Positions 15,676-19,423 are shown, numbered from the stretch's first letter. The stretch is DNA of 64,000 bases from Bacillota bacterium (GCA_015059425.1 SVAM01000002.1:12063-76062); one strand, 5' to 3'. The notes: a model not told the origin generated them from the sequence alone. Program-made: numbers and translations.

Positions 15676-17737
15676 AATATTTATTATTTTAAGTTTATTG
15701 TTTATTTTAAGTTATATTATATTATTTACAAAAATTATAAAATATAGTTCGATATATGATGACGGTTTTAATGAAATTACTGGCACATTGATAGAATATA
15801 AAATAGATGGAGATAAATTGAGTTTTATATTAAAAGCTAAAGAAAAAATAACTGGAACTTATTATTTTAAAACATTAGAAGAAAAAATTAATGCAAAGGA
15901 AATAATTGAATTAGGTATGAAAATCAAAGTAGCTGGTACTGTAAGTGTTCCGAAGAATAATAATATACCAAATACTTTTAATTATAAAAAATTTTTATAT
16001 AATAAGAAAATATATAAAATAATGTCTGTAAATAAAATTGAATTTAAAGAAAAAAATAAGAATTTTGTATATAATATAAAAAATATATTTTTAAAAAGAA
16101 TAGACAGTTTTAAAAATTGTAAAAATTATATTTATGCTTTTATTATGGGGGAAAGTGGTTATATAGATAATGATGTTTATCAAATTTATCAAAAGAATGG
16201 TGTTACACATCTATTTGCTGTTTCAGGTATGCATATTAGTTTTTTAGTTGTAGCATTGAATAATATATTAAAAAAATTAAAGTTTAAAGAAATATATATT
16301 AATATTTTAATTATAATTTTTTTATGCTTTTACATGTTTTTAATTGGATTTACGGCATCAGTTGTTAGAGCTTGTTTACTATATATTTTGCTTTTATTTA
16401 ATCAAAAGCTAAATATAAAATTAAATAATATTACAGTTTTATATTTGATTTTTATATTTTTAGTGTTGATAGATCCTTTTTTTATATACGATATAGGTTT
16501 TATTTATTCTTTTTTAACATCCTTTGGTTTAATGTTATTTGGTAAGAAAATTACAGGTAACTATATTCTTAAATTATTAAAAACAAGTACTGTTGCTTTC
16601 TTATTTAGTTTGCCTTTAACTCTCTATAATTTTTATGAGGTAAATCTATTAACAATTATTAATAATATAATAGTAGTACCAATTGTAAGCTTAGTATTAT
16701 TCCCACTCACATTAATTACTTTTATTTTACCTTTTTTAGAATCCATTTTAAATATTGGCTTCTTAACATTAGAATTTATAAATAGTATATTAAATAATTT
16801 AAGAATAAGTTTAGTAGTTCCTAAAATAAATATAATGTTTGTAGCAGTTTACTATTTCGGTATGTATAATATTTATAAAGGAAAATATAAATATATATTT
16901 TTATTTTTAATGTTAATTATAGTATATAAATCGATACCATATATAAATAATTCTACATATTTATACTTTTTAGATGTTGGGCAGGGTGACAGTACAATAA
17001 TTATTACTGAACATACCAAAGATGTCATATTAATTGATACAGGGGGTAAAATAAATTATGATAGTGAAAGTTGGAAATTAAAAAATAAATCTTATAATTT
17101 GTCTGATTATATAATAACTTTATTAAAAAGTTTAGGGATAGAAAAAATAAGTACAATGTTGATTACTCATGGAGATTACGACCATATGGGAGAAGCAATT
17201 AATTTAGTAAATGATTTTAAAGTAGAAAAAGTAATACTAAATTGTGGAGAATATAATGATTTAGAAAAAGAATTAATTAATGTTTTGAATAAAAAGAAAA
17301 TTCCATATTATTCTTGTATTAAAGAATTAAAAATAGATGACAATAAATTATATTTTTTGAATAATAATGATTACGGGAATGAAAATGATAATTCAAGTGT
17401 TGTTTATACTGAACTTAATAATTATAAATTCTTATTTATGGGAGATGCAGGAATAGAAGTGGAAGAAGATTTAATAAAAAAATATAATTTGCAAAATATA
17501 GATGTTCTAAAAGTGGGTCATCATGGAAGTAAGACAAGTTCTAGTAAGAATTTTATTGATGAAATTGAACCAAAATATTCAATAATTAGTGTTGGAAAGA
17601 ATAACAGATATGGCCATCCAAACAAGGATGTGCTAGAAAATTTAAAAGAATCTAAAATATATAGAACTGATCAAGATGGAAGTATTATGTTTAAAATTAA
17701 AAATAATAAATTAAATATTAAAACATGTAGTCCATAG
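15632..17737 (+). CDS. comEC: DNA uptake channel ComEC/Rec2
   Basis: HLFAVSGMH, FLDVGQGDS, THGDYDH, KVGHHGS, YRTDQDG. Confidence 0.96.
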   Translation: MKVFMPRLKIILQSKIFIILSLLFILSYIILFTKIIKYSSIYDDGFNEITGTLIEYKIDGDKLSFILKAKEKITGTYYFKTLEEKINAKEIIELGMKIKVAGTVSVPKNNNIPNTFNYKKFLYNKKIYKIMSVNKIEFKEKNKNFVYNIKNIFLKRIDSFKNCKNYIYAFIMGESGYIDNDVYQIYQKNGVTHLFAVSGMHISFLVVALNNILKKLKFKEIYINILIIIFLCFYMFLIGFTASVVRACLLYILLLFNQKLNIKLNNITVLYLIFIFLVLIDPFFIYDIGFIYSFLTSFGLMLFGKKITGNYILKLLKTSTVAFLFSLPLTLYNFYEVNLLTIINNIIVVPIVSLVLFPLTLITFILPFLESILNIGFLTLEFINSILNNLRISLVVPKINIMFVAVYYFGMYNIYKGKYKYIFLFLMLIIVYKSIPYINNSTYLYFLDVGQGDSTIIITEHTKDVILIDTGGKINYDSESWKLKNKSYNLSDYIITLLKSLGIEKISTMLITHGDYDHMGEAINLVNDFKVEKVILNCGEYNDLEKELINVLNKKKIPYYSCIKELKIDDNKLYFLNNNDYGNENDNSSVVYTELNNYKFLFMGDAGIEVEEDLIKKYNLQNIDVLKVGHHGSKTSSSKNFIDEIEPKYSIISVGKNNRYGHPNKDVLENLKESKIYRTDQDGSIMFKIKNNKLNIKTCSP
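17162..17490 (+). repeat. comEC MBL-domain segment, direct repeat copy 1
   Basis: Colinear with 19069-19398 at offset 1908. Confidence 0.9.
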
Positions 17738-17749
17738 AAAGGAGTAAGT

Positions 17750-18640
17750 ATGAATTATTATAACGAGATAAAAAATAAGTTGATAGATAACGAAGTATAT
17801 TCAAGAGTTAAAGATTACTCGAAAGAAAGACACAAAGTCATTACATATTTTGAAATTGGTAAATTATTAAATGAAGCCGGAGGTAAATATGGAGATAATA
17901 TTATAGATGAATATTCTAAAAAATTAGTTATTGAAGTAGGTAAAAAATATAATAGAAGAACATTATTTAGAATGAAACAGTTTTATAATATGTTTAGTGA
18001 CGAAAAAGTGTCGCCAATGGCGACACAATTGACTTGGAGTCATTATTCAGAACTGCTGTCAATAAAAGATATTAACATTGTAATGTATTATATCAATATT
18101 ACAATAAATAACAATTTATCTAAAAGAAAATTAAGGGAAAGAATTAAAAATAAAGAATATGAAAGATTACCTATTGAAGCAAAGGATAAGCTTATTAATT
18201 GTGAAAAAATTGAAGTAAAAGATTTGGTTCCTAATCCAATTTTGATTAAAAATAAAAATAATATAGAAATCATAACTGAAAGAATATTACAAAAGTTAAT
18301 ATTAGAGGATATAGAATCATTTATGAAAGAATTAGGAAGTTCATTCAGTTTTATTGGTAGTGAATATAAAATTAAAATTGGTGATAGAAACAATTATGTT
18401 GATTTACTTTTATTTAATTATGAATATAATTGCTTTGTAGTTGTTGAATTAAAAGTAACTGAATTTAAGGTGGAATATATTGCACAAGTGCAAAAATATA
18501 TGAATTATATTGATAAAAATATAAAAGGAGTAACTAATGACAGAACAATAGGCATACTTATATGTAAAAAAGAAAATAAATTTGTGATTGAATATTGTTC
18601 AGATGAAAGAATTGCTGTTAGAGAATATGAATTAGTGTGA
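17750..18640 (+). CDS. YhcG/DUF1016 PD-(D/E)XK nuclease-domain protein
   Basis: YFEIGK, LTWSHY, ELGSSFSFIGSEY, DLLLFN...VVVELK, IGILIC. Confidence 0.9.
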   Translation: MNYYNEIKNKLIDNEVYSRVKDYSKERHKVITYFEIGKLLNEAGGKYGDNIIDEYSKKLVIEVGKKYNRRTLFRMKQFYNMFSDEKVSPMATQLTWSHYSELLSIKDINIVMYYINITINNNLSKRKLRERIKNKEYERLPIEAKDKLINCEKIEVKDLVPNPILIKNKNNIEIITERILQKLILEDIESFMKELGSSFSFIGSEYKIKIGDRNNYVDLLLFNYEYNCFVVVELKVTEFKVEYIAQVQKYMNYIDKNIKGVTNDRTIGILICKKENKFVIEYCSDERIAVREYELV

Positions 18641-18658
18641 TATAATTGATTTAGGAGA

Positions 18659-19012
18659 ATGAATACTATGAATATAGATGTTATTAGAGTTAAAATTTTT
18701 GTTACAGTACCATCAGAAAATACACAAGAAGTAAGAAATGCAGTTTGTAATGCAGGGGCAGGAATAATTGGTGAATATAGTTATTGTACTACCTGTGTTA
18801 AATCATTAGGAACGTTTATACCAAATGAAAATGCAAAACCTTATATTGGTGAAAATAATAAATTAGAATTTGTTGAAGAAGATAAATTAGAGGTTATATG
18901 TGACATTAAAAATGCTAAGCATGTAATATCAAATCTAAGAAAAGTACATCTATATGAAGAACCAGCCATAGATATTGTTCCTTTGATTGATGAAGATAGT
19001 TTGGTTAAATAA
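18659..19012 (+). CDS. YqfO/NIF3 PII-like domain stand-alone protein
   Basis: AGAGIIGEYSYC, GTF.P...PYIG, HLYEEPAIDIVPL; own TGnTATAAT promoter and GGAG RBS. Confidence 0.8.
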   Translation: MNTMNIDVIRVKIFVTVPSENTQEVRNAVCNAGAGIIGEYSYCTTCVKSLGTFIPNENAKPYIGENNKLEFVEEDKLEVICDIKNAKHVISNLRKVHLYEEPAIDIVPLIDEDSLVK

Positions 19013-19041
19013 GAATTATCAATTATGATAGTTCTTTTTTT
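19011..19041 (+). terminator. Intrinsic terminator closing the cargo genes
   Basis: AAGAATTATCA-ATTA-TGATAGTTCTT plus T-run. Confidence 0.7.
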
Positions 19042-19068
19042 GTTTTAAATTCGACTTACTTTTTGACA

Positions 19069-19423
19069 ATCACCACATGGAGACTACGATCACATGGGAG
19101 AAGCAATTAATTTAGTAAATAATTTTAAAGTAGAGAAAGTTATGTTTAACTGTGGTGTCTTTAATGATTTAGAAAAAGAGTTAATCAAAGTACTAGATAA
19201 AAAATATATTAAATATTATTCATGTATTAAAGAATTAAATATTGATAATAATAAATTGTATTTTTTGAATAATAGTGATTATGAAAATGAAAATGATAAT
19301 TCATCAGTTATTTATACTGAACTTAATAATCATAAATTTCTGTTTATGGGAGATGCAGGAGTGGAAGTGGAAGAAGATTTAATAGAAAAATATAATTTAA
19401 ACAATGTTAATAATTATAAATAG
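19069..19423 (+). pseudogene. comEC: Partial comEC 3' duplicate (MBL domain fragment)
   Basis: Begins at the (T)HGDYDHMGEAINLV motif with a 1-nt insertion; similarity ends at 19398, before KVGHHGS. Confidence 0.88.

Follow-up and report, generated by a model that had tools for sequence, protein, structure and literature searches.

Phages and other elements insert into competence genes and thereby switch off DNA uptake. At staphylococcal rlmH (orfX), staphylococcal cassette chromosome (SCC) and pseudo-SCC islands are moved by the Ccr large serine recombinases. The integrase of the Listeria phages A118 and phi10403S is likewise of the serine type, and the comK gene that they split is restored only on excision. 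The accessible part of a published account describes A118 and phi10403S as temperate phages that integrate into the competence gene comK (PMC7397523), and the available portions of two others describe Phi1207.3 and Phi10394.4 of Streptococcus pyogenes as using serine-family recombinases and inserting at a GA dinucleotide inside comEC, which interrupts the gene (PMC4260502, PMC12587576). Here we analyse a stretch of 64,000 nucleotides, hereafter the window, from a Bacillota bacterium (GCA_015059425.1, SVAM01000002.1:12063-76062), in which comEC is whole and is followed by two genes and a second, partial copy of its own distal region. Positions 17168-19075 probably constitute an integrase-less cassette, composed of a comEC tail and its cargo, that occupies a phage serine-integrase site, the older tail behind it having later been partly deleted. 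The window is contig C14:12063-76062 of an 18-contig, 1.15-Mb metagenome-assembled genome (MAG; completeness 95.7%, contamination 2.7%), which we denote G000; L numbers denote the loci and contigs compared, and coordinates without a prefix are window positions.

The comEC gene (15632-17737, + strand) encodes 701 aa and is a ComEC/Rec2 by domain content, with DUF4131 (Pfam, 6.3e-08), Competence (4.2e-46) and metallo-beta-lactamase (MBL; Lactamase_B, 2.2e-17) domains in a single open frame. Its 5' part (15632-17167, +; aa 1-512) is of the host type and holds DUF4131, Competence and the first half of the MBL domain according to Pfam. The remainder (17168-17737, +; aa 513-701), which we term CAS1 and read as a cassette-type replacement tail, is fused in frame so that comEC stays whole, and it opens with a CATGGAG core within the H-G-D codons (17168-17174, +), an in-frame junction resembling an unoccupied attB (B.B'). 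A repeat search returned a single family, 17168-17467 and 19076-19375, at 85% identity and a spacing of 1908; alignment and codon comparison widened it to about 17168-17490 and 19076-19398, gap-free, in frame and free of stops. The second copy, CAS2 (19076-19398, +), is read as an older, displaced tail of the same type. It ends after codon ~621, ahead of the VGHHGS motif, and lacks the last ~80 codons, which makes it an internal MBL-domain piece (aa 513-621 of 701); an open frame of 109 codons (19094-19423, +) lies inside and after it. Homology begins at the H codon (CAT, 17168/19076), preceded by S-P in copy 2 and by I-T in copy 1. Over 108 codons, the copies share 85.2% nucleotide and 84.3% amino-acid identity, with 13/6/29 differences at codon positions 1/2/3 and Nei-Gojobori (NG86) estimates of dN 0.089 and dS 0.711, a ratio of 0.12. 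This pattern indicates that both copies diverged as working genes and that the second did not decay in place.

An earlier note on this DNA, made from the sequence alone, had recognized much of this layout. The gene order that it gave (comEC, DUF1016 nuclease, small open reading frame (ORF), second comEC copy, holA) is confirmed by ORFs and Pfam, the duplication at an offset of 1908 recurs in the repeat search, alignment and codon comparison, and its remark that copy 2 looks like a separate allele agrees with the third-position excess and the low dN/dS. It had the copy start at the THGDYDH codons, which is correct for the motif but not for the residues ahead of H, and it mistook the internal piece for a comEC 3' end. 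The 1908-bp circle that recombination between the repeats could release is possible on paper but, as copy 2 lacks the last 80 codons, would truncate comEC; neither a 1908-nt skip nor the back-joint is among the 15 of 127 Logan-contig joints listed, many of the joints coming from other organisms at 85% likeness. A diversity-generating retroelement was considered and rejected, as no reverse transcriptase occurs among the ORFs of 13000-23000 (eight of them Pfam-scanned) and the differences between the copies are of all kinds, not adenine-confined.

The tail recurs far beyond the genus of the window. Searched against longer proteins, the 115-aa translation of copy 2 gave 7015 matches at E <= 1e-10 among 7532 candidates, and the best 120 were 80-89% identical and mostly full-length ComECs (650-707 aa by their listed lengths). 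In five of these (P0007, P0008, P0011, P0023, P0115), the first two thirds are highly divergent, both among the five and from the window's ComEC, and the sequence from HGDYDHMGEAINLV to the end is nearly the same. Frames of ~206 aa are also present, in which unrelated residues run into SPHGDYDH... with the junction as in copy 2. Two standalone tail ORFs, P0001 (238 aa) and P0002 (237 aa), contain an internal partial duplication of the tail, as unequal crossing-over among stacked tails might produce. Scanning a single genome for each species yielded at least 599 pattern matches, and in at least 537 species genomes a cassette-type tail was confirmed by tblastn; the best 79 loci of these, from gut and rumen MAGs classed as 'Bacilli / Mollicutes / Tenericutes', were used in the locus analyses below.

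Across the 79 loci, identity to the window is 29-50% for ComEC aa 1-510 (43-50% in short partial matches only), 27-45% for HolA and 76-86% for the tail (aa 511-701, matched copy per locus). Median amino-acid identities, computed on 60 full-length ComEC proteins, are 54% for the N part and 59% for the C part between the window and 16 genus relatives, 38% and 81.5% between the window and 43 cassette loci, and 36% and 81.5% among the cassette loci themselves. At the nucleotide level, comEC 5' and holA are closest to genus relatives (70-76%; comEC 5' ~70-71%), CAS1 (85%) and CAS2 (87-88%) to the tails of distant loci, the DUF1016 gene to the distant locus L072 (85.5%), and the stretch from the small ORF to the phage arm described below to distant loci (89%). 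Similarity to the cassette family sets in within 17162-17168 (query positions 1-7 of the best 8 matches). A tree of the N part unites the window with the 16 genus relatives in a single clade (support 100); in that of the C part, the rows closest to the window belong to cassette loci. Judged by these comparisons, the 5' and 3' parts of comEC show different histories.

ComEC was detected in 38 of 41 genomes searched, that of the window counted, and the same-genus loci maintain the order comEA-comEC-holA-rnhC, so that comEC-holA, which the earlier note gave as the ancestral order, holds in the genus. Three same-genus species (G019, G007, G009) have a DUF1016 gene (55-56% amino-acid identity) between comEC and holA and no second piece of comEC. 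No ComEC among the genus species representatives is more than 60% identical to that of the window, yet copy 2 is 81-83% identical to the window's own tail. In another same-genus locus, L039 (G008:C1:4000-14400), comEC is followed by a 370-aa ORF that is mnmA-like by sequence and by other genes, and holA was not found within 8 kb of comEC; matches to the ComEC tail on contig C51 of G008 turned out to be another MBL protein, not comEC.

The junctions ahead of the tails point to a phage. We compared the 60 nt upstream of every tail across the 79 loci, into which 69 fused tails and 62 further tail starts entered. The fused tails are preceded by species-specific comEC sequence, and the orphan tails by a conserved motif of 27 nt, which abuts CATGG at a fixed position. 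This arm occurs as type A (ATTCGACTTACTTTTTGACAATCACCA, 19049-19075 in the window), a variant A2 and type B (ATTCGTATGCATAAACGTATGTCACCA), and one of the three stands at <=6 mismatches ahead of 53 of the 62 orphan starts; the other nine comprise four that are B-like by eye, one shifted, two in-frame fused copies that had been misfiled, and two (L092, L117) with other upstream sequence. The point of joining is the same nucleotide even where the displaced tail is only 34-60% identical. Within the 1.15-Mb genome of the window, the type A arm is unique at <=6 mismatches, bar one unrelated 6-mismatch match.

Two IMG/VR contigs, L125 and L124, also contain the type A arm. In L125 it forms the left half of a 56-nt site, ATTCGACTTACTTTTTGACAATCACCACATGGAGGTATGTGGTTAGTAAGTCGAAT, with outer inverted repeats ATTCGACTTACT and AGTAAGTCGAAT. 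The site lies ~30 nt past the end of a 473-aa gene whose product has Resolvase, Recombinase and Zn_ribbon_recom domains, matches a PHROG integrase family, and reaches no more than 36% identity with phages of the INPHARED copy; CI-like repressor, Erf, exonuclease and HNH genes are its neighbours. L124 terminates at ...CACCACATGG, a prophage cut at its right junction. The window sequence at 19049-19075 (+) is identical to the L125 arm and is thus the left half (P) of an attP next to the gene for a large serine recombinase; together with the core at 19076-19082, it makes up an attR-type junction (P.B', 19049-19082, +). The right half of attP, P', was found exactly in 20 metagenome stretches. In one of them, L136, comEC runs to ...LNYLIITHG and is followed by the P' arm GGTATGTGGTTAGTAAGTCGAAT and then by an integrase 93% identical to that of L125. 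By its sequence, L136 is a genuine attL within comEC at the same core as in the window, and this integration would end the comEC frame nine codons after HG. The CATGGAG core is thus common to the phage attP (L125), the attL (L136), the attR at 19076 and the attB-like site at 17168-17174. Of 100 other genera in the family, 17 show the attR-type pattern, and a backwards control gave 0. Within 17162-19423 itself there is no integrase or transposase (the ORFs are the comEC tail, DUF1016 and a 117-aa ORF), as the earlier note had said; its accompanying claim that no short att repeat is present does not hold, given the half-site at 19049-19075.

The same 23-nt P' arm was also seen joined to varied non-comEC left halves on metagenome contigs L127, L129, L131, L133, L135, L139, L142, L144 and L145, where it is followed by three recurrent leader types. 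Evidently, the arm also serves other targets or other families of cassettes.

In many of the 79 loci, comEC is followed by extra tails, all on its strand and as many as five at a locus (L046, L104, L110). Nearly all of these begin at HGDYDH (query residue 2-3), and single genes, mostly defence candidates, lie between the stacked tails. The tail nearest holA is often the most divergent (34% in L053, 57% in L051, 61% in L083), as expected of the species' own displaced end. When 344 ORFs from 80 loci (the 79 and the window) were clustered, DUF1016 was the commonest cargo (47 of 80 loci), followed by a 280-aa Bro-N/DinD protein in 35 loci (NCBIfam DinD, 338 bits vs a cut-off of 242; PADLOC PDC-S13); the family of the 117-aa ORF is present in four (window, L056, L069, L079), and other cargo includes S51 peptidase, FGase-like, NUDIX, HD, ADP-ribosylglycohydrolase and esterase genes. 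No recombinase clusters as cargo among the 344 ORFs, and the only recombinase cluster, Xer-like by sequence, sits beyond the arrays by a thymidine-kinase-like gene in three loci. These comparisons support displacement, stacking and cargo turnover. They agree with the proposal of the earlier note that a unit of comEC tail plus cargo came in at the HGDYDH codons and shifted an older tail downstream, which also fits the 5'/3' discordance, and relatives do show the variable numbers of HGDYDH-starting tails with differing cargo that it had suggested looking for. The outcome that it had named as contrary, an invariant locus with congruent 5'/3' trees and no cargo turnover, is not what was seen. Its picture of an array built by repeated rounds survives as to stacking and turnover, but not as to transformation and homologous recombination as the driver, given the attP arm at 53 of 62 orphan starts.

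Most likely, the driver is an integrase of the serine type that a phage supplies in trans, and we infer the following route of insertion. On this reading, temperate phages of uncultured gut Bacilli carry the gene for a large serine integrase, and its attB is the CATGGAG core within the H-G-D codons of comEC. Ordinary phage integration at this core splits comEC, whereas a cassette at the same core supplies a tail and keeps comEC whole (B.B' at 17168), leaving the earlier tail CAS2 stranded behind the attR-type junction. In the favoured route, a cassette circle carrying an attR-type site (P.B') would enter an occupied attL (B.P') through an excision-type reaction between two molecules. The products would be B.B', with comEC restored, and an adjacent P.P', as at the first unit of L130, whose order is comEC-CAS-DUF1016-orf-[P.P']-esterase-[Q.P']-HTH (helix-turn-helix) gene-[Q.B']-decayed tail; the element beyond P.P' would subsequently have been lost. 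A later deletion would have removed the rest of CAS2 and anything beyond it, up to the native comEC-holA spacer, as suggested by the break of CAS2 at 19398 and by the similarity of 19455-19511 to the comEC-holA spacer of the same-genus locus L022 (81% over 57 nt). The spacer that this deletion would have left occupies 19399-19517 (+), its last part being the native intergenic region. An alternative phage shuttle, in which excision with a downstream attR would pick up the cassette and excision with an upstream attR would leave it, is not supported, phage contigs L124 and L125 carrying no tail.

Several observations weigh against the integrase-driven reading. The window's genome, at 95.7% completeness, contains no L125-like integrase; its best serine-recombinase homologue is 28% identical (tblastn, C5) and the others 22-27%, from which the cassette would be currently immobile or dependent on infection. 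The P' arm, whether as attL or attP, is found in 0 of 401 genomes of the order at <=2 mismatches, so that the occupied sites needed by the favoured route are rare in assemblies. No viral contig carries the tail (29 pattern matches, 0 confirmed), L124 and L125 show no cassette beside attP, and the type B arm is absent from the viral contigs searched. According to the available part of a published account, serine integrases recombine only attP with attB, or attL with attR when a directionality factor is present (PMC3783163); under that rule, the commonest array form, tail-cargo-P.B'-tail, which is also that of the window, requires loss of a P'...P segment or a non-canonical attR x attB reaction. 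Furthermore, an approximately unbiased (AU) test on the C-part tree does not reject a grouping of the window tail with the genus (p 0.61), and the tail family may for this reason have originated in or near that genus. Finally, none of the Logan contigs listed reaches across the whole locus or across the 19075/19076 junction, a point that also bears on the integrity of the assembly discussed below.

In all, G000 holds at least seven stretches that resemble large serine recombinases (22-28% to the L125 integrase), many for a small genome: C5:85240-86616, two on C7, two on C12, C4:11301-12035 and C14:146223-146783.

Carried further, the integrase-driven reading would make the cassettes hitchhikers of reverse polarity, a version that we put forward tentatively and hold to be rather unlikely. 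They would be attR-type circles that enter only occupied sites, that is, the attL of a comEC-splitting prophage or cassette, mending comEC, stranding the resident behind a non-productive attP/attR pair, and delivering a defence-candidate gene. If this were true, the cassettes would be a mobile 'repair patch' where transformation and prophages are at odds.

A different account dispenses with any site-specific enzyme: a comEC tail with its cargo, taken up by transformation, would rely on homology or microhomology to recombine at the conserved MBL motif, displacing the previous end in the manner of Rhs and contact-dependent inhibition (CDI) loci. It gains from the absence of an integrase in the window and of an L125-like one in the genome, from the lack of the P' arm in the 401 genomes of the order, and from the 80-89% nucleotide likeness of tails between genomes, as homologous exchange between tails could replace cargo or add to it where a genome already has a cassette; the internal partial duplications of P0001 and P0002 are likewise what unequal recombination would give. 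We nevertheless consider it improbable. The junction falls at the same nucleotide in all 53 arm-bearing orphans, including those whose native tails are 34-60% identical and share only ~7-9 nt, and the arm ahead of the orphans is half of a phage attP, which capture driven by homology does not predict. Moreover, the comEC 5' parts of donor and recipient are only ~36% identical at the amino-acid level and therefore offer no left anchor for homologous recombination.

The integrase-driven reading also presupposes that both tails reside in one cell. A MAG contig might instead join or stack pieces of several genomes, and the genome is an 18-contig MAG with 2.7% contamination. Most of the stretch is present in seven faecal runs as Logan contigs; in four of these, summed depth over most of 17076-19535 is several-fold to ~50-fold that of most comEC 5' and holA bins, far above the flanks, and the Logan contigs there are short (~200-1200 nt). 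In run X7, bins of higher depth lie within comEC 5'. The raised depth over 17076-19535 suggests that many co-resident organisms carry the tail and DUF1016. A chimera is nonetheless very improbable: the flanks on both sides belong to the window's own genus, the junction of comEC 5' with CAS1 is bridged by an exact Logan contig (16925-17209), exact Logan pieces cover 17183-17462, 17950-18312 and 18617-19065, and 40 of 79 independent loci, some of them on contigs of 0.5-1 Mb (L088, L109), show this architecture with an arm at the identical position. Had the comEC end been duplicated in tandem long ago, with the copies diverging where they stood and unrelated genes inserted later, a direct repeat on one strand with genes between would result. 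This is scarcely credible in view of a dN/dS of 0.12 and 108 codons free of stops and indels, unlike a drifting dead copy, the greater closeness of CAS2 to tails of other genomes (87-88%) than to CAS1 (85%), and the phage arm ahead of CAS2.

The first cargo gene (17750-18640, +) encodes a DUF1016/YhcG PD-(D/E)XK nuclease, identified by Pfam (DUF1016_N 8.6e-26, YhcG_C 5.2e-34, both over the cut-off) and by PADLOC as candidate PDC-S02 (E 1.6e-59). The second (18659-19012, +) is the 117-aa ORF; it has no Pfam, NCBIfam or PADLOC match, and ESM Atlas yields only a CutA1-like lead, so that the 'YqfO-like' label of the earlier note is unconfirmed. The right-end sequence of the cassette (19013-19048, +) is an A+T-rich hairpin with a T-run that contains TTATCAATnnTGATAGTTCTTTTT, which recurs ahead of the phage arm in cassettes bearing different cargo. 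The earlier note had credited the small gene with its own promoter and terminator. The terminator scan calls nothing after the 117-aa ORF, the hairpin and T-run included, and promoter-like matches in 17600-19560 number 15, vs 19.6 +/- 4.0 in shuffles; what stands is a hairpin and T-run conserved among cassettes. A promoter-like arrangement reading into the orphan tail, at a level not above chance, occurs at 19063-19090, with TTGACA in the phage arm and, 16 nt on, TACGAT in the HGDYDH codons; type B arms provide in-frame ATG codons instead (MHKRMSPHGDYDH...).

On L134 (700-1073, compared with 18380-18730 of the window), a 3' fragment of DUF1016 (from ~aa 234) begins ~25 nt past a full P.P'-type site, and behind it come an intergenic stretch and the beginning of the 117-aa ORF that match those of the window, a layout indicating that the DUF1016 and small-ORF pair also moves as a P'-initiated unit. 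G000 has three further DUF1016 paralogues (C15:13453-14358, C4:41781-42698, C4:47151-48104; 41-53% amino-acid identity), which stand alone amid housekeeping-like genes (named by eye: dnaE- and efp-like on C15; NUDIX-, Clp ATPase- and tmk-like on C4) and have no flanking repeats. DUF1016 as a free-standing, homing-type driver was rejected, as the three paralogues in its own genome lack a flanking duplication and many cassettes carry other cargo. On either side of the comEC region lie comEA (14962-15675), holA for the delta subunit of DNA polymerase III (19518-20459, +; Pfam), which is the ancestral neighbour of comEC, and an RNase HII-family gene with DUF3378 (20471-21394, -). G+C content across the locus is ~0.19-0.29, and the cassette shows no step in composition.

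On the integrase-driven reading, a docking site at which phage integration splits comEC would also hold small, stackable units that have no integrase and keep the gene whole by bringing along half of a catalytic domain, and this half-domain has spread over hundreds of species that otherwise differ greatly in comEC. Should the reading hold, it would add another way for serine-integrase att sites to become platforms of gene capture and explain a ComEC mosaic in gut Bacilli that would mislead phylogeny and annotation. The DUF1016 (PDC-S02) and DinD-like (PDC-S13) cargo would be candidates for phage defence, and new sets of integrase and att site of known sequence would become available.

A search of the literature, made outside supplementary files and in part on titles and the openings of abstracts, found no paper on comEC-tail cassettes, on comEC with DUF1016 or on comEC with a large serine recombinase. 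The likeness to Phi1207.3, Phi10394.4 and Tn1207.1 (at pneumococcal celB) lies in the fixed GA within the comEC coding sequence, as the CATGGAG core contains GA. Phi1207.3-type elements differ, as far as the available portions of the sources go, in that they interrupt comEC and bring no replacement end, and neither arrays of displaced ends nor single-gene cassettes are described for them. A118 and phi10403S similarly bring no surrogate gene end and form no cassette arrays. The locus is also unlike an integron, with no IntI-type gene among the ORFs of 13000-23000 or the Pfam matches of the eight proteins scanned; its cassette ends are halves of a dyad-symmetric serine-integrase attP, with the junction ...TCACCA/CATGG, and not attC hairpins with GTTRRRY.

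Displacement arrays of the rhs, CDI and type VI secretion system (T6SS) kind resemble the comEC arrays in having a main gene followed by orphan 3' ends that start from one motif, each with a small neighbour gene. In rhs and CDI loci, a conserved 5' core is combined with hypervariable tails and immunity genes, whereas in comEC the tail is conserved (81.5%) and travels, the 5' part is species-specific (36%) and the cargo is varied (nuclease, DinD, NUDIX, HD, esterase); the comEC junctions, unlike those of rhs, CDI and T6SS arrays, carry a phage att arm. Like cis-mobilizable elements (CIMEs) and the tandem accretion of the ICESt1/ICESt3 type, the units lack a recombinase of their own, have att-derived bounds and accumulate at one site. 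CIMEs are flanked by the attL and attR of tyrosine-recombinase elements, whereas the comEC cassette has a seamless, attB-like left end (B.B' without the P' arm) and a serine-integrase attR on the right. Like SCC and pseudo-SCC islands, finally, the comEC cassettes are integrase-less units stacked at the att site of a large serine recombinase in a gene end, each with a copy of that end as its boundary and presumably mobilized in trans. SCC and pseudo-SCC repeat only a few codons of the gene end, whereas the comEC cassette brings 191 codons, half a catalytic domain; and, unlike in those islands, its core lies mid-gene within a metal-binding motif and its right boundary is the arm of a phage attP.

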